In this document: piece by piece, positions 1,500-58,414 of the stretch | Layout of the letters: each line of letters opens with the position of its first letter | Position numbering within the stretch: the first letter of the stretch is position 1 | From: an uncultured cyanobacterium | GTDB taxonomy: Bacteria > Cyanobacteriota > Cyanobacteriia > Cyanobacteriales > Nostocaceae | DNA length: 64,000 nt | Reading direction: 5' to 3' | NCBI GenBank assembly: GCA_963706595.1 | Contig: OY970166.1 | Span: 3,648,001-3,712,000, forward strand | Translations under genes and position numbers: made by a program | The notes under the pieces: generated by a model | What the model saw: only the letters and a program-made list of their open reading frames with translations | Database searches by the model: none | What the model was told of the DNA's origin: nothing

Positions 1500-2453
1500 T
1501 TAAACTGATGATGCCACCTGAATGCCATCTGTAATTGTCCGCGTTACAAACAATTCTAAATCTTCATCAGGAATTGCGGCTCTCATTTGTAGTTTAACTG
1601 CTTGTGCTTGTTCTTCAGACTCCACTAGGGCAAACACTGTGGGACCAGAACCAGACATCATGGTTCCTAAAACCCCTGCTTGAGTGGCAAATAATTCTCG
1701 CAGTTGTAAAACTTGAGGATAAGCTGGTAAGACGACACGTTCTAAATCATTGTGCAGTTTTTGGGCAATTTCTCCGGCATCTTGATTCAGGATAGCTTTA
1801 ACTATTGCTCCAGAATGAACTGCGGCCGCACGCGCTGCTAAATTTTCTGTATCTTTGAGATAAGAACTGCCAAATTCTTGGCGATAGGTTTTGTACGCCC
1901 AAGCTGTGGAAACTTCCAGACTGCGATATTTTGCCAATACGAGATATATAGTATCCAAACTTGGTAAAGGGGAAAGTTGCTCACCTCTACCTGTCGCAAT
2001 CACTGTGCCACCAGCGACACAAAAGGGGACATCTGAACCCAGAGTAGCACCCAATTCTTCTAATTCGGGTTTTGTTAGTCCCAGGTTCCATAATAAATCT
2101 ATCCCCACCAAGACAGCTGCGGCATTTGTCGAACCTCCCGCCAACCCAGCCGCTACGGGAATATGCTTATTAATCGTAATTTCCACACCCCCGTATTTAG
2201 CCAAGGCTTCGGGAAATTTCGCCGCCATGAGTGCTGCGGCTCGGTATGCTAAATTACTTTTGTCTGTGGGTACTTGTGGGTGCTTGCAGTTGACGTGAAT
2301 CGTGTCAGTGCTGAGAGATTGCACATTAATTTCGTCTGCAAGATCGATAGTTTGGAGTATCATCGCTAACTCGTGATAACCATCGGGACGGTCAGTGATG
2401 ATTTCCAGATATAAGTTAATTTTAGCAGGAGCAATTAGATTGTATGAACGCAT
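1500..2453 (-). CDS. ispE: 4-diphosphocytidyl-2C-methyl-D-erythritol kinase
   Basis: APAKINLYL, GYHEL, PVAAGLAGGS, MSGSGPTVF motifs. Confidence 0.97.
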   Translation of the reverse strand: MRSYNLIAPAKINLYLEIITDRPDGYHELAMILQTIDLADEINVQSLSTDTIHVNCKHPQVPTDKSNLAYRAAALMAAKFPEALAKYGGVEITINKHIPVAAGLAGGSTNAAAVLVGIDLLWNLGLTKPELEELGATLGSDVPFCVAGGTVIATGRGEQLSPLPSLDTIYLVLAKYRSLEVSTAWAYKTYRQEFGSSYLKDTENLAARAAAVHSGAIVKAILNQDAGEIAQKLHNDLERVVLPAYPQVLQLRELFATQAGVLGTMMSGSGPTVFALVESEEQAQAVKLQMRAAIPDEDLELFVTRTITDGIQVASSV

Positions 2454-2454
2454 A

Positions 2455-2545
2455 TCAGTTATCAGTTATCAGTTATCAGTTATCAGGGGTCAGTTATTGG
2501 GAATCAGTTATCAGTCTGTTTACTGTTCACTGTTCACTGTTAACT
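2455..2545. repeat. STRR heptamer array (TCAGTTA)n / (ACTGTTC)n
   Basis: Tandem tcagtta units; the actgttc units supply the last codons of rsmA. Confidence 0.85.
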
Positions 2546-3344
2546 GATTTACTAATGTTACCCATTGCTGAACGCTGAGGTCTTCGGCTCGAACTTGGGG
2601 ATTTATTTCTAATTGTTCCAGTAATTGGGTCAGGCGATCGCGTTCAACTAGAGATTGCAAATTATTTCTTAACATTTTACGTTTCGCCCCAAATCCCAGT
2701 TTGACCAAAGTCTCAAATTTGCGGGGGTTCAGTGCTGGTGTTGAAATCTGCCGGGGACGCAACCGCACAACGGCTGAATCTACCTTTGGTGGTGGGTAAA
2801 ATGCACCTGCGGGAACTGTGCAAATAAATTCACAATCAGCTAAATACTGGACACGCACACTCAACGCGCCGAAAGTTCGGGAACCAGGATTAGCATATAA
2901 CCTATCGGCTACTTCCTTCTGCACTAATAGCACGATAGAGTCAAACGGTTCGGGGTTAGGGTTGGCGATAGTCCCTAGCAACTTCTCTATAATTGGTCCT
3001 GTGATGTTGTAGGGAATATTGGCTACTACTTTGTTTTGCTTTTGAAAGTTGGGAAAGGCTGCTAACGGCGATGCTAAATCTAAGGTGAGGAAATCCCCTT
3101 GCAATAGTAAGAAGTTATCTTTTTTACCCAGTTCCTTGGCTAACTGTTTGCATAAATCAAAGTCTATTTCCACTGCTACGAGCGATCGCACCAAAGGAAG
3201 TAAACGCCGAGTTAGAATACCCGTACCCGGACCAATTTCCAGCACGCGATCGCTCTCGTGACATTCTGCTGCTTTAATAATTGCATCCAGTGCCTTTTCA
3301 CTTTTGAGCCAATGTTGAGCAAAAGACTTGCGCGGTCTAATCAT
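2520..3344 (-). CDS. rsmA: 16S rRNA m6,2A dimethyltransferase
   Basis: RKSFAQHWL, VLEIGPGTG, VANIPYNIT, FYPPPKVDSAV. Confidence 0.97.
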   Translation of the reverse strand: MIRPRKSFAQHWLKSEKALDAIIKAAECHESDRVLEIGPGTGILTRRLLPLVRSLVAVEIDFDLCKQLAKELGKKDNFLLLQGDFLTLDLASPLAAFPNFQKQNKVVANIPYNITGPIIEKLLGTIANPNPEPFDSIVLLVQKEVADRLYANPGSRTFGALSVRVQYLADCEFICTVPAGAFYPPPKVDSAVVRLRPRQISTPALNPRKFETLVKLGFGAKRKMLRNNLQSLVERDRLTQLLEQLEINPQVRAEDLSVQQWVTLVNQLTVNSEQ

Positions 3345-3542
3345 TAATTTTCCTGAATATATCTAATTTTAAGGTTTTTTATTTAGAAGTTCCTAATCAG
3401 ATTGACTGAATATCTTGTGGAATCGGCATACTTCGACAAGCTCAGTACAAGTCTTGCCCGTCCTCATTATGCAAGTTACTGGCATGATATATGATACCAA
3501 GTCCGGTTGAATACGAAACGCGGAACCCCACCAACCCATCTA

Positions 3543-3617
3543 TTATCTCCCCTCCTCGCTTGCGGGGAGGGGTTGGGGGTGGGGTTCCATGATTGTGGTA
3601 ATCGTAACTAATTAACT
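3543..3617 (+). repeat. ~73-bp dispersed repeat, copy 1 (copy 2 at 7485-7557)
   Basis: ttatctcccctcctcgcttgcggggagggg...gattgtggtaatcgtaa-taattaact present twice in direct orientation. Confidence 0.85.
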
Positions 3618-3702
3618 GCACATGAGATGTGAATCAAAGTTTATAGCGTTTTAGATGTATTTATGCGAAAATACCCGGTAAATACCAGCATTTTCTTGCA
3701 TC

Positions 3703-4089
3703 ATGTCATATACACCTTCAGACAGCATTTGGATTGTTACCGATGACACTCCCCAAATTTCCACTCCTAACGGTACGAAAGGCGGAACTAACAATACAAG
3801 AGGCTGGGGCGAAGAACTTCCAAAGGATACCAGCAAAGGGGTAGGAGAAGCCGTTAAGGTTAGCACTGAAAAATTAGAGCAAGAAATGACCCACTTTCTG
3901 CAAGTGGTGGGGCGCTTATTTAACCGTGCTGAACAACAAGCTAAAGTTAACTCTGGGATGCAGTTAGATGAAATTGAGTTATCGGTGGAAATTAGCGGCG
4001 AAGGTGAAGTTAAATTAATTGGCAACGGTGCAAAAGCTGGAGGAAAAGGAGCAATTAAGCTGACATTTAAACGGCAAGAATCAAAATGA
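3703..4089 (+). CDS. Small Pepco/Trypco-like (peptidase co-occurring) protein
   Basis: C-terminal MQLDEIELSVEISGEGEVKLIG..KAGGKGAIKLTFKR resembles Pepco/Trypco domains; stop lies 1 nt before the caspase ATG. Confidence 0.7.
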   Translation: MSYTPSDSIWIVTDDTPQISTPNGTKGGTNNTRGWGEELPKDTSKGVGEAVKVSTEKLEQEMTHFLQVVGRLFNRAEQQAKVNSGMQLDEIELSVEISGEGEVKLIGNGAKAGGKGAIKLTFKRQESK

Positions 4090-4090
4090 G

Positions 4091-6169
4091 ATGGTAAAAA
4101 ATTGGGCGATCGCCATCGGCGTTAACCAGTATGATTATTTGCAACCGCTAAATTATGCCAAGCGGGATGCACAGTTAATCCAGCAGTATCTCCAAAATCA
4201 GGCGGGGTTTGAGCAGATATATTTTTTCTCAGATGATTCCCCTGATATTGACGGAAAATCTACTCGCCCAAACCGTGCTAACCTATTGCGAGTTTTGCGG
4301 CAAAGATTTGAACATCCGTTCATGAGTGCGGGTGATAACTTTTGGTTTTTCTTTAGTGGTCATGGCATCAGACACGCTGGACGTGATTATCTCATGCCTT
4401 GCGATGGCGACCCAGAAGATATTGAAAATACAGCAATTGCCATTAATTATGTTACTGAACGCCTGCGTCGCTGTGGTGCTGATAATGTGGTTTTGATTCT
4501 AGATGCCTGTCGTAGCTTGGCTACTCGTGGCGGGGAAGGTATTGGGCGACAAGCGGCTGAGGAAGCACGTCAACAAGGAGTTATTAGCATATTTTCCTGT
4601 AGTCCCCAGGAGTATTCTTATGAAATTGAGGCATTACAACAAGGTGCTTTTACCACAGCGTTACTAGAAGGGTTAGGAATTCAAGGTAAATGTGCCACTG
4701 TTGAAAGGTTGAACCAGTATTTAAATTCTCGTGTGCCGGAAATTGTTCATCAATATAAAAACGGCAAACAAACGCCTTATGTGATTGCCGAGCCTGTAAA
4801 TAAATCTCACCTGATTCTTGTACCCCAATATGCAACCTTAGCCGATATCGCCACACTCAAAAATGATGCTTATCAGGCAGAAGTAAACAGCAATTTTGAA
4901 CTAGCAGAACAATTATGGATGCGGGTGTTAGCTGCGGCTTCAGGGCAGGATACAGATGCAATCAAGGCTATTCAAAGAATTGCACGGTTGCCAAATAATA
5001 CTGAAGGGTTGCGAACAAATTCGGAATCTGGCAATCAAAAGAGTAGCAACAGCACAAACAGCCCTAATGACTCTAAATCGGTAGAGACTCCAAAACCATC
5101 TAAGGAAATTCTAAATAAACCTGCCAGTAAACCGATTCCAATTCCTCCTCAAAAGCAAAATTCACCAGTTCCGAAAACTCCTGATAATAGAGAGCCGAGA
5201 ATTAAAACACCCACGACTCCCAGACAGTCCACAAATTCTTCACCACAACCACCAATAATAACTAACTGGTCACGGCGGAACGTGATTAAAAGCGTTGGGT
5301 TTGCAGGTGCTGGTTTGGGTTTAGTAATTTTAGTACCGCGCCTCTGGCAATCTAATTCACAAACGGTAGATAATTCACAAGTTGTAACTGTAGATAGAAC
5401 GGGGAAAATCATAGACCGCCGTAATGTTGAAGCGAAATCTTCCATTGAAGACTTAGGGAATGGTGTCACCTTAGAAATGATGCAGATACCAAAGGGAACT
5501 TTTACAATGGGTTCACCAGCAGGGGAAGCAGAACGACTTGACGATGAAAGTCCCCAGCGTGATGTAAATGTTCCTGAGTTCTTGATGGGTAAATATCCAG
5601 TTACCCAGGCACAGTATCAAGCAATTCTGGGGACAAATCCTGCTCATTTTAAAGGTGGAAAAAGACCTGTAGAAACAGTAAGTTGGGATAATGCAGTAGA
5701 GTTTTGTGAAAAATTGAGCCAGAAGACAGGAAAAATTTATAGGCTACCCAGCGAAGCCGAATGGGAATATGCTTGTCGTGCGGGAACAACTACACCCTTT
5801 TATTTTGGTGAATCGATAACCACAGATTTAGTTAACTACAACGGTAACTATCCCTACGCCTCAGCCCCAAAAGGTGAATATCGTGAACAAACAACAGATG
5901 TAGGAAAATTTCCGCCAAACTCTTTCGGTTTGCACGATATGCATGGTAGTATATGGGAATGGTGTCAAGATACATATAATAGTAACTACCAAGGTACGCC
6001 CAAAGACGGTAGTCCGTGGTTAGATGGTAGTGATAAAAACATCAAGCTGATGCGTGGCGGTTCTTGGAGCTACGATGCTAGGACTTGCCGTTCTGCTGTT
6101 CGCTATGGAGTTACCCGCGCGAATCTGAGCAACCATGCTGGTTTTCGTGTTGTTGCGGTGGTTGCGTGA
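4091..6169 (+). CDS. Caspase-like peptidase (C14) + Pro/Ser linker + TM + FGE-sulfatase/CLec domain; DGR target protein
   Basis: Catalytic FSGHG and LDACR; hydrophobic GFAGAGLGLVILV; FTMGSP, RLPSEAEWEYACRAG, RGGSW...GFRVV FGE motifs; 3' end matches a downstream TR. Confidence 0.93.
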   Translation: MVKNWAIAIGVNQYDYLQPLNYAKRDAQLIQQYLQNQAGFEQIYFFSDDSPDIDGKSTRPNRANLLRVLRQRFEHPFMSAGDNFWFFFSGHGIRHAGRDYLMPCDGDPEDIENTAIAINYVTERLRRCGADNVVLILDACRSLATRGGEGIGRQAAEEARQQGVISIFSCSPQEYSYEIEALQQGAFTTALLEGLGIQGKCATVERLNQYLNSRVPEIVHQYKNGKQTPYVIAEPVNKSHLILVPQYATLADIATLKNDAYQAEVNSNFELAEQLWMRVLAAASGQDTDAIKAIQRIARLPNNTEGLRTNSESGNQKSSNSTNSPNDSKSVETPKPSKEILNKPASKPIPIPPQKQNSPVPKTPDNREPRIKTPTTPRQSTNSSPQPPIITNWSRRNVIKSVGFAGAGLGLVILVPRLWQSNSQTVDNSQVVTVDRTGKIIDRRNVEAKSSIEDLGNGVTLEMMQIPKGTFTMGSPAGEAERLDDESPQRDVNVPEFLMGKYPVTQAQYQAILGTNPAHFKGGKRPVETVSWDNAVEFCEKLSQKTGKIYRLPSEAEWEYACRAGTTTPFYFGESITTDLVNYNGNYPYASAPKGEYREQTTDVGKFPPNSFGLHDMHGSIWEWCQDTYNSNYQGTPKDGSPWLDGSDKNIKLMRGGSWSYDARTCRSAVRYGVTRANLSNHAGFRVVAVVA

Positions 6170-6170
6170 G
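6045..6170 (+). repeat. DGR variable repeat (VR)
   Basis: Ungapped 126-bp match to 6340-6465, with 14 of 18 mismatches at TR adenines. Confidence 0.93.
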
Positions 6171-6223
6171 GACACTTTGCTCTTTAGCCCTCTGCACCTC
6201 TTATTCTTTTCACTTCTTTCCCT

Positions 6224-6235
6224 CGCCGTTAGGCG
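6224..6235 (+). other. Short GC hairpin downstream of VR (candidate retrohoming cis-element)
   Basis: cgcc-gtta-ggcg after a pyrimidine-rich tract, about 55 nt past the stop codon. Confidence 0.45.
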
Positions 6236-6259
6236 GAAAAAAGTTTTTTATCAAATATC

Positions 6260-6288
6260 TTGATACAAAATCTCTTTTACACTAGATT
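6260..6288 (+). promoter_or_regulatory. Candidate sigma70 promoter for the TR RNA
   Basis: TTGATA-N17-TAGATT about 50 nt upstream of TR. Confidence 0.5.
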
Positions 6289-6291
6289 TAA

Positions 6292-6615
6292 TCAAATTTC
6301 TCATTGAGTTGAGAATTTGAGGATGGGATAGGCACTTTTAGCTGCTGCGTGGAGGTTCTTGGAACAACAATGCTAGGAATTGCCGTTATGCTGTTCGCAA
6401 TAGGAATACACGCGCGAATCAGAACAACAATGTTGGTTTTCGTGTTGTCGCGGTGGTTGCGTGAGCGCTCCCAAAGGTCAGAGCTGATAAGTGGGAATTT
6501 ATCGGGCGTACAATCGGGAGTCCAGACCTGTCCCAGCGAGGAAGGCGACGACCTACGAATATAAAACTGAGTCGGATAGCTTGGTAGGTTGCAAAACCGA
6601 AGACTTGTCCGACCC
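6292..6615 (+). ncRNA. Putative DGR RNA (5' hairpin + TR + structured spacer)
   Basis: Inverted repeat 6292-6320; stem with GGGA loop 6484-6505; stem 6571-6613 enclosing GGTT-GCAA-AACC. Confidence 0.6.
6340..6465 (+). repeat. DGR template repeat (TR)
   Basis: In the VR frame reads [40 protein letters not shown]; 10 AAC/AAT codons. Confidence 0.93.
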
Positions 6616-6722
6616 AACCAAATCTTTTCTAATTAAAGAAGAAAGCACTAGCGTTAGCTGTTAAATTTGTTAACTATTTAAAACGTTTTATCTTAACAAA
6701 ACTTAATTATCACAGTTACCAG

Positions 6723-6760
6723 ATCCCCGACTTCTTTGAGAAGTCGGGGATTTATTTATT
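6723..6760 (+). terminator. 13-bp hairpin + T-rich tail (terminator or REP-like)
   Basis: atccccgacttct-ttg-agaagtcggggat then ttatttatt. Confidence 0.6.
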
Positions 6761-6965
6761 AAGTTCATAAGTAAAGTTTATTGTATTTTGAACGCAGCAT
6801 TTTCTATGGGCTGTTAGTCTTTTATTATGTGAGCAGTTAAGCAATTCTTGTCTGTCTAAGCATTTATGCCAAGTTCATCATGATTGATTAACTCTTCAGG
6901 AATCTCTCACAAATCTATATTCACTAAATACACAAATTTCCCAAGTCTTAATTACTAGCACTGTT

Positions 6966-7286
6966 ATGACTCATTACTCTCTTGATTGGATTGAAGCCTG
7001 GTGTCAAGAAAACGGCTGGACAGAATTATTTGTCGAGCGGCGCAACAACTATTGGGCTTTTCCTCCTGGATGCGTAATGCCTGAACCAATTCCCCATCAC
7101 GTCCTCAACTTAATTAAGGCTGAAAAGGGTTTCACTGTTGAGGAAAGAGTCTGGTCAGCATCAGCAGTAATTAGCACAATTGTAGCTATAATTTCTACAT
7201 TTGTATTTAAGTGTCCCATGCCATTAGTTTTTGCCTTCGCTTTTAACGCTGTGACTGTAGCTCAACTTGAAATTGAAGATGCATAG
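6966..7286 (+). CDS. Conserved hypothetical membrane protein
   Basis: WIEAWCQENGWTELF..WAFPPG..MPEPIP motif plus C-terminal hydrophobic segment. Confidence 0.75.
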   Translation: MTHYSLDWIEAWCQENGWTELFVERRNNYWAFPPGCVMPEPIPHHVLNLIKAEKGFTVEERVWSASAVISTIVAIISTFVFKCPMPLVFAFAFNAVTVAQLEIEDA

Positions 7287-7484
7287 CCGCAAGCCACAAG
7301 GCGGAAGTCAAAAGTTTACCCTGAGCGAAGTCGAAGGGTCAAAAGTTTTGAGTGTAGTTTTTAAGTCTTGGCGATTAGAATATTGCTACCGCAACGCCAA
7401 GGGCGAACGCATCTACACAAACGAAGTCCGCCTGCGCGGACTAAGAGAATGCTTGAAAAGTTTTGCCTGTGCAAGCCTATATCT

Positions 7485-7557
7485 TTATCTCCCCTCCTCG
7501 CTTGCGGGGAGGGGCTGGGGTGGGGTGGTAGATTGTGGTAATCGTAAATAATTAACT
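7485..7557 (+). repeat. ~73-bp dispersed repeat, copy 2
   Basis: Direct copy of 3543-3617. Confidence 0.85.
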
Positions 7558-9473
7558 TATACTTCTTTCAAATAGTAATTAAACCGTTTCCGGAGTTTTT
7601 CCACACTCATATCTTGAGTCCAGTATTCCACTAGCGCATGACCAAATGCCCAGGCGTTGCGGTCAGGTGCAGCAGAGTTTTCTAGTAGCAATGGCCAGAG
7701 AGATAGCAAATCAAAGTTGAGAGGATTAACTTTACCTGTATGCAATAGGGAAAACAGATCATAGGCCATTTGCAGTTTACCAATTACAATCGGTAACTGT
7801 TCCACAGGGATTTGCTCTGCTAGGAGATACGCCAGAGTGGGAGAACCAGTTGATACTGTGGCGATGAACTGAAGCACAGGACTTTTCAACAGAGCAGTTA
7901 GTCCTTGAGTGGTCGCCATTTGGAAGGTGTAATGGTCGATGATTTTGGCAGATGCGGCAGTACGAGCTTCTAAGTTACGCAAAAAGCGGGCTAATCGCAG
8001 TTGTTTAGCTGGGGCGATCGCATCTACAATTTGCAGAGATAGTGTTTCTACACCCCAGGCGGCTCGACCTGTTTTGATATCACTGGTAACAATTGGTAAT
8101 ACTAGATTACAGAAGTTATCCAACAGTTGGGCGCGGTATTCGGTAGCGTTGCGAATAGCAATTTCTTTGGGACGATTTCCCGATTCCCAATTGTATGGCG
8201 GTTCCCACTCGCGGATAGGACGAAGACGATCTACTTGGGTAATCACGGCGATGGTTGGTAAATCTGCAACTTCCGCCCGCATATCTTGGAGAAAATCTAC
8301 ATCCATTTGTAGGGCGGGATCAAGAGCCGGGGTAACTAACAGTAGTAAATCTGCGTTTGTAGCATAATCAAGCACCAAATTTCGCAAATCACCACCGTTC
8401 ACCTGTTCATAACCTGGGGAATCCCACAGCGTTAAACTTTCCCCGGTGGAACTTTGCCAATGATAATTTTGAATCTGATCAGTGCTGGGTAAAACATCCA
8501 CCTCTGCGAGATCAGCCTGAAATAGAGTATTAATCAAGCTGCTTTTTCCCGAACCTGTGCGCCCGACAATGAGAATATTTACAGGTTTTTGGGCAACTTC
8601 CTCGGCTGGTTCGGCTTTAGTTAAAATTTCTCGCAGGTTTTGAGTCTTAGCTGTGGGTAGAGTTGGTGTAGAAATACTGGCTTCTGCAACTGGTAATTTG
8701 CTACCACTGTAAAGTGCGATCGCCTGACGGCATAAATTCCGCAGGGCATTTTCCCGCAGTAGTTGACCTAAATTTACTAATAACTGCTGAGTTGCTTGGT
8801 TAGTATAACCCTTAGTAGCTTGCTTGGCCACTGCGACTACAGGATTAAATAGCCACTGCGCCCAATTCCATGCTTGCCAAACTTTCCGAGCCGATGGCTC
8901 AATTTTGCGATAGACTTCATAAGCTTGATAGGCTTGTCCAACGGTAATCTGATTTAGTGCTGGTGATAACTTCTGCATCCACTGATCTAAGTCATCCATC
9001 GTTCCCCGAATTAACCCGTAAGCCTGGGGTATATAAATATTCAACAGGGGATATTGAACTTGAGGATAATATATATGCGCGATCGCTGTGACTAAATCCT
9101 GGCATCTTGTCCAAAAAGTTTGCCAATCTTCCCAAATCAGGCGATCGCTTTCTGCTGCTTTGAGAATTTGTTGCAGTGCGATTTCTGCCTGTTTGATATT
9201 GTCGCTTTGGGCTGGTAGTCCTACTGGCTGATCTGCCGCAGATTCTAACTCTTCTGTGACTTCTGCCAAAGCAGCTTCTACCATATTGATTTGAGGTTTA
9301 GTCCATCTCACCAGCAGCCAGCGCCAGCCCACAAATACCAGGGTAAATATACCCCAAATCCAACTAATACCCCAGGTATGAATTTGCATCCCTGCACAGA
9401 TGAGCAAAAAAGTAATAATTAGTGCAATAGGTAATGCTAATACTACCCATTGCCACAGTTTTAATCGCAGCAT
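7557..9473 (-). CDS. Membrane-anchored P-loop GTPase (Era/YeeP-like)
   Basis: Two N-terminal TMs; GRTGSGKSS, DSPG, TQVD; ATG 9473 preferred. Confidence 0.85.
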   Translation of the reverse strand: MLRLKLWQWVVLALPIALIITFLLICAGMQIHTWGISWIWGIFTLVFVGWRWLLVRWTKPQINMVEAALAEVTEELESAADQPVGLPAQSDNIKQAEIALQQILKAAESDRLIWEDWQTFWTRCQDLVTAIAHIYYPQVQYPLLNIYIPQAYGLIRGTMDDLDQWMQKLSPALNQITVGQAYQAYEVYRKIEPSARKVWQAWNWAQWLFNPVVAVAKQATKGYTNQATQQLLVNLGQLLRENALRNLCRQAIALYSGSKLPVAEASISTPTLPTAKTQNLREILTKAEPAEEVAQKPVNILIVGRTGSGKSSLINTLFQADLAEVDVLPSTDQIQNYHWQSSTGESLTLWDSPGYEQVNGGDLRNLVLDYATNADLLLLVTPALDPALQMDVDFLQDMRAEVADLPTIAVITQVDRLRPIREWEPPYNWESGNRPKEIAIRNATEYRAQLLDNFCNLVLPIVTSDIKTGRAAWGVETLSLQIVDAIAPAKQLRLARFLRNLEARTAASAKIIDHYTFQMATTQGLTALLKSPVLQFIATVSTGSPTLAYLLAEQIPVEQLPIVIGKLQMAYDLFSLLHTGKVNPLNFDLLSLWPLLLENSAAPDRNAWAFGHALVEYWTQDMSVEKLRKRFNYYLKEV

Positions 9474-9949
9474 TTTTTGGTGGTCCGCCCTAATTTTTGA
9501 CACTCCCTACATCTATACTAAATTTATCCTAAAAAACTTCTATGGAAAGTGAAACTCTAATCAAGACTCGGTTATCGTTTATCTGCTGCGACAATTCGAG
9601 CAAGATACCTTAAACAACATATCGGTAAAAGTAATGTTGCGGTTGCTGAAATATATATTCTACGATCTTCAGGTAGAAGGGAATCTTTCGTTTCTAAATC
9701 ACAAAAATTAATTACCTTATAAGCGGGAGCATCGGCCGATGAACCGATGGATACATCCCACACACTACCAGACTCATCAAATCCACAATCGTCGAAAATA
9801 GTAACTTTTGCTCGTATTGGCGTTCGCTCTTATTCTCGAAAAGCAGATTCATCCACGTAGTGTTAAAAAAAATCCGGGTTAATGCGGGTAGTTACTCCCT
9901 TTACGCAAAACTTTTTGAGATGGTTGACTCGATTATTAAATTAAAAAAT

Positions 9950-48460: not shown

Positions 48461-48712
48461 AGGGGCAGATGCTCAATAAAATTCACTAATTTAGTATATT
48501 ATATAACTCTGTATTTGGAATAAATATACGTAATTTATGGTTTATTTTTCTAGCGGCATTGATATATATAGCAACCGACAAGGCAGTTAAGACATAAACG
48601 GAGAATCAAACTTAGACACCATCCGGGTTTTAACCCACTCCCTACTCCCCACTCCCTACTCCCTACTCCCCAGCTTAATTGTGATGTGACGATTCAGTTT
48701 TAGAGTGGGGAA

Positions 48713-50424: not shown

Positions 50425-50494
50425 TTATTAGTTTAACTCAGTATAGGCTTTAGTAGAGACGTTTAAGTGAAAATCGTCTCTACATTGCTTTCTA

Positions 50495-50660
<166 letters not shown>

Positions 50661-50771
50661 AGTGGATTTCAAAGAAATGAGTGAGAAGTGGATTTCAAAG
50701 AAATTGCTAACCTGTAGAGACGTTTTATCCAACATCTCTACACTGTGGTCTAATTAACCCAAAAATTCTGT

Positions 50772-55915: not shown

Positions 55916-57499
55916 ATGGTCAACATCCAACACCATAGCCAAACTATAAAAACCGTTAAAATTCTTGTTGTTGAAGATGAATTTATCCTGGCTATCAACT
56001 TACAAGAAACTTTAGAATCCCTGGGATACACTGTTGTAGATATCACAGATTCCGCAGTATCTGCAATTACCAAAGCCAAAGAATTACGCCCAAACTTGAT
56101 TCTGATGGATATCCGTCTGCGAGGAAAACAGGATGGCATCCAGGCGGCAGAGCAAATATGGAACACTCAACAAATTCCTGTAATTTACGTTACTGGACAC
56201 TCTGATAGAATAACTGTAGAACGAGCAACCTTAACATCACCTTTTGGGTATATTCTCAAACCCATTAAAGAGCAAGAACTTTATGTTGCTATTCAAACAG
56301 CACTCAACCGCTATGAACGCGAGCAGTTTTTAAGTTCTGTCCTCCGGGGGATGGGGGATGGGGTAATTGTGGTTGATCCTCAACGGCGGATTAAATACAT
56401 GAATCAAGTGGCTGAAACACTCACACAGTGGCCATGGAATCAAGCTAAAGAACATTTATTAACTGAAGTTGTCCAACTGATTGATGAACAAACTCAGCTA
56501 CCCGCAGAAAATCCGATCATCTTTGCCCTCGAACAAGAAACTACTATTTATCTAGACAGTCTTGTACTACTGGTTGCTAAAGATGGCAGAACTATTCCCA
56601 TAACTCATAGTGCTACACCTTTAAGAGACAATAACGGTGTAATTACAGGTGCTGTTTTAGTCTTTCGAGATGACACCCAACGCAAACTCACCGCAGAACG
56701 TAATCTTGCCGATGAAAGTGCCAGACAACTAGGAATTCAACTGCTAGAAATGCAAAAATTAACCCAGTTGAAAGAAGATTTTTTGGCAACCACATCTCAT
56801 GAAATGCGAACGCCATTATCAAATATCAAAATGGCCATCTGTATGTTAGAACATATTCTGGATCAACAAGGAGTTTTGCAGTCAACAGCGCCTGCTGCAT
56901 CTTGGTCGATCAACCGTTATTTAAATATTATCCGTGAGCAATGTGAGCAAGAGCTAGACTTAGTTGACGATTTGCTATATATGCAGATAATTGATGCAGA
57001 GTTTTATTCCTTGGAATTAACTTCTATTCAGATTCAAAATTGGCTACCTCACGTTATTGAAACTTTCCAAAAACGTTCTGATAGTAGCCAACAGAATTTA
57101 CAGGTTAGCGTTGCCCCAGATTTACCACCTGTGCTTTCAGATATGTCTATTCTGAACAAGATTGTATCAGAGTTACTCAACAATGCTTGTAAATATACTC
57201 CTGTTCAGGAAGAAATTATCATAAATTCCCAACTCGTGACTAATACAGATGCTGAAATTCCTTTGTTTGAAATTATAGTCAGCAATTCTGGGATCACAAT
57301 TCCCCTAGAAGAACAATCTCGGATTTTTGAAGCATTTTACCGCATTCCTCAAAGCGATCGCTGGCAATACGGCGGCACAGGATTGGGTTTAGCATTGGTG
57401 AAAAAGTTAGTGCAGTATCTCCAAGGTACAATTACTGTCACCAGCACTCAAGGCTGGACAAGTTTCACAGTTCAATTACCTTTGAAACTATCAACCTAA
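55916..57499 (+). CDS. Hybrid REC-PAS-histidine kinase
   Basis: VVEDE..LMDI receiver, PAS, SHEMRTPL, GTGLGLA. Confidence 0.92.
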   Translation: MVNIQHHSQTIKTVKILVVEDEFILAINLQETLESLGYTVVDITDSAVSAITKAKELRPNLILMDIRLRGKQDGIQAAEQIWNTQQIPVIYVTGHSDRITVERATLTSPFGYILKPIKEQELYVAIQTALNRYEREQFLSSVLRGMGDGVIVVDPQRRIKYMNQVAETLTQWPWNQAKEHLLTEVVQLIDEQTQLPAENPIIFALEQETTIYLDSLVLLVAKDGRTIPITHSATPLRDNNGVITGAVLVFRDDTQRKLTAERNLADESARQLGIQLLEMQKLTQLKEDFLATTSHEMRTPLSNIKMAICMLEHILDQQGVLQSTAPAASWSINRYLNIIREQCEQELDLVDDLLYMQIIDAEFYSLELTSIQIQNWLPHVIETFQKRSDSSQQNLQVSVAPDLPPVLSDMSILNKIVSELLNNACKYTPVQEEIIINSQLVTNTDAEIPLFEIIVSNSGITIPLEEQSRIFEAFYRIPQSDRWQYGGTGLGLALVKKLVQYLQGTITVTSTQGWTSFTVQLPLKLST

Positions 57500-57532
57500 A
57501 TTCCCTACTCCCCACTCCCTACTCCCCACTCC

Positions 57533-58414
57533 CTACTCCCCACTCCCCAGATGATCTCGCAATGCTTCACGCATCACCTCTATCGGTAGAGTTTCCCTTT
57601 GTAACCAGATTTTTAATGCGGCTACACCTTGCTGAACGAGCATTTCTAAGCCATTGATAGCGATCGCACCTTGCTTTTGGGCTTGTTGCAGAAATTGTGT
57701 AGCGTTAGGAGTATATATTAAATCATAGGCGATCGCACCTGGGGATAATTTCTGCATATCTTCCACACTCACAGGCGAATCATCAATGTGAGGATACATA
57801 CCTACAGGGGTGGTATTTACTAGCAAGTTAGCTTGGGGAATCAGTTGTGCTAAATCATCCCATAGATGAATTTGTAATTTTGCAGCTATCGGTGTATTTT
57901 CCCAACTATTACGAAACTCTAGTAATCTCTGCATATTACGCCCCACAACATGAATTTGGGACAAACCTAGCTGCTGACAACCTGCAACAACTGCCCTAGC
58001 TGCGCCACCATGTCCTAAAATTACCGCTACCTTTTGACTCCAGTCCTGCTGATATGTTGTCTGCAAGGGAGCAATAAAACCTTCTATATCCGTATTTGTG
58101 CCTACCCATTGATTATTCTGGCGGCTCACGGTATTGACTGCGCCGATACTCTGTGCTATTGGGGTAATTTCTGATAATAATGGCATAATTGCCTGTTTAT
58201 GCGGAATAGTGACACTAAAACCCACAACATTTATAGCTGCGAAGCCTGCGATCGCCACCTCTAAATTCTCTGGTTTAATCGGAAAAGGTAGATAAATATA
58301 ATCTAATCCTAATTGAGCCAAAGCCGCATTATGCATCACTGGCGATAGCGAATGTTCTACTGGATGCCCAATTACGCCCAAAAGTTGAGTTTTACCTGTA
58401 ATTAATTTAGTCAT
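57533..58414 (-). CDS. aroE: Shikimate dehydrogenase
   Basis: HSLSPVMHN, VTIPHK, GAVNT, NTTPVGM. Confidence 0.96.
   Translation of the reverse strand: MTKLITGKTQLLGVIGHPVEHSLSPVMHNAALAQLGLDYIYLPFPIKPENLEVAIAGFAAINVVGFSVTIPHKQAIMPLLSEITPIAQSIGAVNTVSRQNNQWVGTNTDIEGFIAPLQTTYQQDWSQKVAVILGHGGAARAVVAGCQQLGLSQIHVVGRNMQRLLEFRNSWENTPIAAKLQIHLWDDLAQLIPQANLLVNTTPVGMYPHIDDSPVSVEDMQKLSPGAIAYDLIYTPNATQFLQQAQKQGAIAINGLEMLVQQGVAALKIWLQRETLPIEVMREALRDHLGSGE

Follow-up and report, generated by a model that had tools for sequence, protein, structure and literature searches.

What does a bacterial caspase cut, and to what does it respond, when it carries a C-type lectin fold at its C-terminus and is encoded one nucleotide behind the gene of a small companion protein? 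The question is raised by a pair of genes, here called gene A and gene B, in a 64,000-nucleotide stretch of DNA from an uncultured cyanobacterium (positions 3,648,001-3,712,000 of a single 5.57-Mb contig; hereafter the window), whose genes have their closest relatives in Nostoc/Anabaena-like cyanobacteria. An earlier note on this DNA had described the pair as a Pepco-like partner and a membrane-anchored caspase with a hypervariable C-terminal sensor, a candidate receptor for immunity or cell death. The answer that we find probable on balance is a two-gene suicide module of the Pepco type, in which a protease and its effector are joined to a lectin sensor diversified by a diversity-generating retroelement (DGR).

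The two open reading frames (ORFs) lie on the forward strand with one base between them in the ORF list, as had been noted. The small protein proves to be more than Pepco-like: gene A matches the Pepco family PF24393 of Pfam over the full profile (E 4.1e-38; 130.8 bits against a cut-off of 27; profile positions 1-112 of 112), while its Pfam match to Trypco1 stays below the cut-off (E 0.072). It has 462 close homologues and is the sole Pepco found by a search of the window's genome. Linkage of Pepco to caspase, whose absence the earlier note took as a sign against its own reading, is conserved. A scan of one genome per species gave 330 relatives of gene B; the best 80 of these loci were searched with a hidden Markov model built from 120 Pepco homologues, and 74 have Pepco upstream in the same orientation, separated from the caspase gene by exactly 1 nt in 50 of them and by 4-7 nt in 12 more. 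The six loci without it comprise one contig end, three in which a remainder of the 3' end of Pepco directly precedes the start of the caspase gene, one with nothing in that place and one with another N-terminal fusion. Pepco is mostly retained even where caspases of the clade have other C-terminal domains in place of FGE.

Gene B starts with an orthocaspase domain that is recognized by Pfam and by the PADLOC 'caspase' model (E 2.6e-18); its nearest relative among PDB sequences is Metacaspase-9 (E 0.009). The His/Cys dyad is intact, as the earlier note had read it: the motifs SGHG (aa 89-92) and DACR (aa 138-141) around His91 and Cys140 are invariant across 22 aligned homologues, and a motif regex finds them intact in 78/80 related loci. 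The other end of the protein is an FGE-sulfatase domain, the presumed ligand sensor, and the combination is common, with at least 1833 homologues carrying both domains at E ≤0.001 among 8000 candidates scored. Of the parts claimed in between, the Pro/Ser/Asn linker (18 Pro, 15 Ser and 13 Asn among the 99 residues of aa 301-399) and the hydrophobic segment with its twin arginines were found again; the helical region ahead of the linker is probably present, as suggested by a low-confidence AlphaFold2 model of the full protein (22 sequences, mean pLDDT 47).

What such a protease may act on is suggested by work on another Pepco, in the parts accessible of a recent preprint (Evans et al., bioRxiv 10.1101/2025.11.14.688446). 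The Streptomyces subrutilus protein (SsPepco) forms heat- and detergent-stable beta-barrels of 9-10 subunits; the trypsin-like SsAvs4 encoded beside it cuts off a 2-kDa C-terminal tail after Ile97; and SsPepco that ends exactly at the cut residue kills E. coli, provided that its amphipathic helix is present. Pepco-linked serine and cysteine proteases carry a variety of sensors, FGE among them (bioRxiv 10.1101/2025.11.14.688446). The locus studied here shares with the SsPepco-SsAvs4 pair, as far as the preprint's accessible text describes it, a small Pepco immediately upstream of a sensor-fused protease, a layout in which an amphipathic helix accompanies beta-strands, and a C-terminal tail beyond the conserved core; for the family, the preprint mentions cysteine proteases as well as cyanobacteria and FGE sensors.

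An AlphaFold2 model of gene A (99 sequences, pLDDT 74.6) predicts a strand at residues 8-13, disorder at 17-45, a second strand at 49-54 and an amphipathic helix at 55-84, followed by strands at 90-97, 103-105 and 117-123 and a tail at 124-128. The predicted helix spans 30 residues with a hydrophobic moment of up to 0.64, and a Kyte-Doolittle scan of the whole protein finds no hydrophobic segment (maximum 19-residue mean, KD19, 0.32). The monomer model is compatible with the published description of Pepco. Foldseek comparison of the model to the PDB gave nothing at E 0.001 or better, and a search of PDB sequences by a profile made from the Pepco alignment returned a chance-level match only (E 0.78).

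In a search of 1.8 billion representatives, which gave 707 matches at E ≤0.001, 139 diverse relatives were compared: the core ends almost universally in KGAI.LKFKR, and the tail beyond KFKR is variable, mostly 1-8 residues long, with a few cases of 14-28 residues rich in Pro/Ser/Glu. In gene A this tail is QESK, and the last modelled strand stops at residue 123. A conserved Lys-Arg in front of a variable tail resembles a processing site, so that a cut at or next to K123-R124, releasing QESK or 1-2 residues more, is the likely event predicted from these sequences. Orthocaspases cleave after basic residues (Arg/Lys), and the KFKR end would suit a protease of this kind. A complex of Pepco with the caspase domain (aa 1-300) was predicted in two runs that scored 0.00 and that, having no controls, speak neither for nor against an interaction.

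The earlier note had left the small protein as substrate, inhibitor or adaptor. Published work favors the first of these roles and points to a death effector rather than to an inhibitor or adaptor. The other roles, in which Pepco would serve the caspase as inhibitor, chaperone or adaptor and killing would proceed through other substrates, appear highly unlikely to us: cleavage of a caspase-linked Pepco is postulated by analogy, and the studied protein has a far longer tail, but deletion of Pepco abolished toxicity and truncated Pepco alone was lethal in the system described in the accessible part of the preprint (bioRxiv 10.1101/2025.11.14.688446), the layout of strand, helix and hairpin with its amphipathic helix is retained in the model of gene A, and the invariant KFKR with its variable tail has the look of a processing site.

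The segment WSRRNVIKSVGFAGAGLGLVILV is the sole stretch of gene B with a KD19 of at least 1.0, and its peak of 1.88 exceeds the value of 1.6 usually taken as the threshold for a membrane span. The 15 residues before its core contain three K/R and no D/E, the 15 after it one K/R and one D/E. Twin-arginine (Tat) signals combine an S/T-R-R-x-F-L-K-type motif with a stretch of moderate hydrophobicity, behind which a basic residue follows; here S-R-R-N-V-I-K, then SVGFAGAGLGLVILV, then P-R fit such a signal by eye, at an internal rather than N-terminal position. Hydropathy and charge fit a single N-in/C-out span, with the caspase and Pepco predicted on the cytoplasmic side and the FGE domain beyond the membrane. 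Of the related proteins, 60 from the best 80 loci have a complete FGE domain; 34 of these keep the segment in sequence (consensus SRR[RK]VIQ.VGFAGAGLGL.I.VPR), and the surrounding linker is not kept.

The sensor itself bears the marks of directed mutagenesis. Its ligand-facing tail had been named as the VR, and it does prove to be a DGR variable region (VR). VR and a non-coding template repeat (TR) were first detected as a direct repeat (6032-6170 / 6327-6465); the copies are 295 nt apart and differ by 18 mismatches in 126 nt, 14 of which fall on TR adenines, which account for 29/126 TR bases (binomial p 1.4e-6). The protein columns encoded by the VR are hypervariable across the 22 homologues. 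Adenine-biased mismatches, an AAY-rich template and hypervariable columns together identify a DGR VR/TR pair. Any other TR of the genome was rejected as the true donor, with at most 74% identity against 86% for the local one.

Two further elements accompany the repeats. The sequence between VR and TR begins with a conserved segment, a putative target-recognition or terminator element. It is 84% identical to the post-VR segment of another cassette at 4.45 Mb of the same genome and can partly be aligned to the post-VR segment of the VR linked to the reverse transcriptase (RT). The TR is followed by a spacer-type RNA element that has only two copies in the genome, here and at 4.45 Mb, 96% identical to each other, with the two TRs at 81%. 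It stands after the gene in 46/60 complete related loci, and its GAGTCCAGACCTGT core recurs behind the TR of a relative's RT-linked cassette.

The enzyme is encoded elsewhere. One of five RVT_1 matches in the genome is of DGR type: a 304-aa RT at 4,623,929-4,624,840 on the minus strand, with DGR-type motifs, preceded by Avd (NCBIfam DivGenRetAVD, 133 bits against a cut-off of 80) and by a TIR/SEFIR-FGE target; neither a TR nor a spacer element was found at this locus. Comparison with 41 genomes of the family, the window's own included, gave a match at E 1e-20 or better in 21. Full-length RT matches in related genomes are open frames of 336-399 aa, against 304 aa here, and all alignments stop at query residue 295-299. 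Relative to the closest RT (92% identical, 352 aa), homology at the DNA level runs to about codon 298, and in that relative the RT is directly followed by a TR. We conclude that about 50 residues at the C-terminus of this genome's RT are gone, and its own template with them. At the point where homology breaks off lies a palindromic repeat, and the relative's TR and spacer behind the RT are missing here.

With the RT truncated and four VR/TR mismatches off the adenines, the sensor of gene B is probably no longer rewritten in this genome, that is, frozen, as far as its sequence tells. The word hypervariable in the earlier note therefore describes the history of the sensor rather than its present state, since the sole DGR-type RT is 3'-truncated and its TR lost. 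Public sequencing runs offered little for comparison: the best run held 0.17 of the sampled words of this stretch, and none held half.

Relatives place this state in a wider pattern. RT or Avd was found within 7 kb in 0/80 related loci (tblastn, E ≤0.001), while the same queries found both in 11/11 RT control loci. The layout of the window, with VR, a TR 178-203 nt past the stop codon and the spacer element, recurs in 25/60 complete loci; in these 25 VR/TR pairs all mismatches are at adenines in 7, at least 80% in 14 and fewer than 80% in 11 (range 100%-36%). In another 21/60 (e.g., L035 8880-9210 and L058 8700-9030) only 2 nt separate the stop codon from the spacer element and the gene ends in a VR/TR chimera, the template being gone, for which recombination of one repeat with the other is the simplest explanation; such chimeras occur in complete genomes too. 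The spacer element was not found in 13/60 complete loci and lies 1.7 kb away in one. The family thus swings between live and frozen states, and the copy in the window combines a live layout with an enzyme, encoded elsewhere in the genome, that is probably dead.

Decay may have gone further than the sensor. The locus could be a relic drifting towards loss, possibly no longer functional or expressed, and the truncated RT with its lost TR, the four non-adenine mismatches, the frequent decay of related loci (three Pepco remnants, TR deleted in 21/60, truncated caspases) and the disrupted C-terminus of a caspase-FGE paralogue at 1.87 Mb would all agree with this. We think it quite improbable: both ORFs are full length and retain all conserved residues as well as the 1-nt gap and the KFKR terminus, and a frozen sensor can still work. 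The paralogue itself is a distant second caspase-FGE gene (658 aa; genome 1,870,953-1,873,323, minus strand) whose VR end or C-terminus looks disrupted and which has no TR nearby. It is preceded, at a 1-nt gap, by an unrelated 130-aa ORF that has no match in Pfam, NCBIfam or PADLOC and may belong to another protease-partner family such as EACC1.

What is established here is the identity of the domains, the conservation of the gene pair, the adenine bias of VR/TR and the truncation of the RT; the module that we favor would build on these as follows. Pepco, taken from the literature to be a protease-armed pore toxin, would be made as a harmless cytoplasmic protein and, by homology, would pre-assemble into a beta-barrel. 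Gene B would be a single-pass protein with its orthocaspase in the cytoplasm and its FGE/C-type lectin domain exported by the RR-hydrophobic signal-anchor. The lectin domain would bind a ligand, most likely a phage or other non-self component at the envelope; binding would bring caspase domains together and so activate them; and the caspase would cut at or beside the conserved K123-R124, so removing the few C-terminal residues of Pepco. The armed barrel would then permeabilize the membrane and kill the cell, protecting the rest of the filament by abortive infection. The tail of the lectin would owe its sequence to mutagenic retrohoming, with the TR and spacer RNA of the locus as template and with RT and Avd supplied from elsewhere; with the RT gene truncated, the VR has most likely become fixed in its present sequence. 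Topology, ligand, cleavage site and activation by proximity are the conjectural links of this chain.

Several observations weigh against it. The characterized Pepco is cut by a trypsin-like protease after isoleucine and loses a tail of 20 residues, whereas a caspase would remove 4-5 residues here. No PADLOC model matches Pepco, nor does any from NCBIfam. Four VR/TR mismatches lie off the adenines (VR 6050, 6109, 6138 and 6154), which puts the adenine share, at 78%, just below the 80% rule given in the accessible text of Vallota-Eastman et al. (PMC7517822). An immune role, as opposed to one in developmental or stress-induced death, is conjectural for every cyanobacterial member. The topology of gene B was assigned by hydropathy and charge. 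Finally, 26 of the 60 complete relatives are without a hydrophobic segment (maximum KD19 1.10), and on a maximum-likelihood tree of caspase domains (61 rows) its presence changes 10 times, at least six of these changes being forced by well-supported branches.

Some sister sequences on this tree differ in just this respect, one with and one without the segment. In the 26 relatives that lack it, the linker is shorter than 100 residues in 18 (about 60 residues in 16) and at least 120 residues long in 8; the long linkers included in the alignment of 22 homologues have a coiled-coil look by eye. Repeated gain and loss of the segment imply that the linker is an exchangeable cassette and that the sensor is seemingly used on either side of the membrane; they also imply that the module can do without an exported sensor. 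The earlier description of the caspase as membrane-anchored is accordingly weakened as a trait of the family, not as a reading of gene B itself, where hydropathy and charge fit an N-in/C-out span.

The same relatives lend substance to the view that the hydrophobic segment of gene B does not span the membrane and that both of its domains are cytoplasmic: 26/60 function with the same caspase and FGE domains and no such segment, the hydrophobic core of gene B is only ~15 residues long and Gly/Ala-rich, and AlphaFold gives no confident helix there (pLDDT <50). We regard a cytoplasmic sensor as rather unlikely, because the hydropathy peak lies above the usual threshold, the sequence of the segment is strongly conserved inside an otherwise free-running linker, and the twin arginines and positive charges stand on its N side. 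A bolder version of the membrane-anchored reading, which we entertain tentatively, is a true single-pass death receptor: an internal Tat-type signal-anchor would export a folded, diversifiable lectin, binding of an external ligand would be signaled across the membrane to the caspase, which would clip 4-5 residues off a pre-assembled Pepco pore, and linker swaps (at least six well supported, among 61 sequences) would switch between periplasmic and cytoplasmic surveillance in Nostoc-like lineages.

The surroundings of the pair bear on the purpose of the killing. Genes ispE and rsmA adjoin it in the window (1500-3344) and also in two distant relatives (Heteroscytonema and Fischerella), which marks a fixed chromosomal locus rather than a mobile island. 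Such a location would suit a non-immune use of the same machinery, a switch for cell death or differentiation in the filament that answers cues from the environment or from the organism itself, such as stress, nutrient limitation or kin signals. Two sources, in their accessible parts, lean the same way: cyanobacterial DGR targets, orthocaspase-lectin proteins included, have been read as signaling or homeostasis proteins (Vallota-Eastman et al., PMC7517822), and transmembrane orthocaspases have been proposed as receptors of 'extrinsic' programmed cell death (PMC7475262). We nevertheless hold this switch to be unlikely: the tested Pepco-protease pair is triggered by phage portal proteins (bioRxiv 10.1101/2025.11.14.688446, accessible part), a randomly rewritten sensor better suits a changing non-self target than a fixed physiological ligand, and Doré et al. 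argue for antigen sensing in the text available to us (PMC10907252).

Features of the locus. Positions are those of the window; residues (aa) refer to the encoded protein.
Feature	Position	Strand	Length or basis
Gene A, Pepco; predicted latent pore-forming toxin precursor	3703..4089	+	128 aa
Gene B; orthocaspase, linker, RR-hydrophobic segment, FGE (C-type lectin fold)	4091..6169	+	692 aa
Peptidase_C14 domain, aa 4-233	4100..4789	+	Pfam E 2.9e-27
Catalytic His91 and Cys140 of gene B	4361-4363; 4508-4510	+	
Low-complexity Pro/Ser/Asn-rich linker, aa 301-392	4991..5266	+	composition; length and sequence vary among relatives
WSRRNVIKSVGFAGAGLGLVILV, aa 393-415; candidate signal-anchor or transmembrane segment with twin-arginine-like start	5267..5335	+	KD19, charge, conservation
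FGE-sulfatase / C-type lectin fold domain, aa 462-688; presumed ligand sensor	5474..6154	+	Pfam E 4.9e-51
VR of the DGR, last 41 codons and stop	6045..6170	+	86% identical to TR
Conserved segment past VR; small GC hairpin, then A6/T6 at ~6222-6250	6171..6290	+	similarity to other VR downstream segments
TR of the DGR, non-coding; 10 AAY codons in VR frame, stop just upstream	6340..6465	+	repeat comparison
Spacer-type RNA element after TR	6466..6625	+	160 nt, two genome copies
Terminator-like hairpin, 15-bp stem and T-rich tail; possible 3' end of TR-spacer RNA	6721..6753	+	pattern scan

The remaining features are minor. The terminator-like hairpin is one of 6 sites that the pattern scan found against 4.3 expected and is weak evidence for an RNA end; Rfam returned nothing relevant over 3300-7600. 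A hairpin at 7420-7443 resembles Rfam CRISPR-DR28 below threshold (31.9 bits against a gathering score of 35), as a single GC hairpin without an array, and is probably part of a dispersed repeat. Direct repeats of 41 nt (3543-3583 and 7485-7525, 93% identical) were considered as borders of a cassette and rejected: they are copies of a short dispersed element, a GC hairpin with a conserved tail, and with more than 200 matches in the genome they were dropped as evidence of mobility. Apart from ispE and rsmA, the neighbors of the pair are a 106-aa ORF past the template cassette (6966-7286), which has a hydrophobic C-terminal half and no family match, and a dynamin-like GTPase gene on the opposite strand (7557-9503, minus strand, 648 aa), convergent with the locus, whose product combines N-terminal hydrophobic stretches with a dynamin/MMR_HSR1-type GTPase; no link between this GTPase and the Pepco-caspase module was found. 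Short tandem repeats of a kind typical of filamentous cyanobacteria, with a G-rich unit of 7 nt (GGGGAGT or the complement), form arrays at 50482-50665, 48620-48673 and 57497-57564.

How much of this is new? The idea of a receptor-like diversified caspase, put forward in the earlier note, is partly supported, and it is already in print layer by layer: Pepco-protease-FGE pairs, DGR-diversified orthocaspase-lectin proteins, conflict systems and transmembrane orthocaspases have all been described. The following comparisons draw on published descriptions in their accessible parts. The pair differs from SsPepco-SsAvs4 in its protease, an orthocaspase, and in a tail of 4-5 residues (vs ~20) that follows Lys-Arg (vs Ile-Arg); its sensor is a formerly DGR-diversified lectin behind a candidate membrane segment. 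With the targets of Vallota-Eastman et al. (2020; PMC7517822) gene B shares an orthocaspase with a C-terminal CLec/FGE domain, a 3' VR and a location far from the RT; unlike them, it owns a TR and spacer RNA instead of borrowing the TR of the RT cassette, and an upstream Pepco partner has no mention in the accessible text of that paper. Hypermutated FGE/CLec sensors, peptidase effectors and Trypco-type partners of multicellular bacteria link it to the systems of Kaur et al. (2020; PMC7159879) and Doré et al. (2024; PMC10907252); no vWA, MoxR-type AAA or STAND NTPase gene was found among the window neighbors adjoining the pair, which makes it a minimal two-gene version rather than a ternary or NLR-like one. 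On the topology predicted for gene B, a cytoplasmic p20-type caspase, one transmembrane segment and an outer C-terminal domain are shared with the proteins of Bhattacharjee and Mishra (2020; PMC7475262), where outer domains are mainly of WD40 type and caspase cascades are discussed; here a DGR lectin and a likely pore-toxin substrate take their place.

A closer parallel in DNA layout is found in the same genome. The cassette at 4.45 Mb has the same order of target VR, conserved spacer of ~190 nt, TR and spacer RNA element, likewise with no RT or Avd nearby, and differs in having its target behind an AAA ATPase, with no Pepco or caspase. That target (L014 10206-11860; 1023 aa, FGE) is preceded by the AAA ATPase and by a family-less 217-aa ORF, an arrangement that resembles the MoxR-linked systems in the accessible part of Doré et al. 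(PMC10907252). In full-text searches, 'Pepco' together with 'diversity-generating' returned only the preprint of Evans et al. (bioRxiv 10.1101/2025.11.14.688446), whose supplements may already list such a link; its accessible text connects DGRs to EACC1 and lists FGE for Pepco with no mention of DGRs.

Three points go beyond the published descriptions that were found. A caspase-linked Pepco ends in an invariant KFKR with few removable residues; an exchangeable linker would set the sensor outside or inside the cell; and targets own the gene of their template RNA while the enzyme is encoded elsewhere, so that one loss of the RT would freeze several sensors at once. The locus does not overturn current views. 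It offers a compact and genetically tractable example: 3 kb of DNA would encode each of the three layers that make up a bacterial 'innate immunity' pathway, namely a sensor that can be programmed, a caspase, and an executioner that forms pores.

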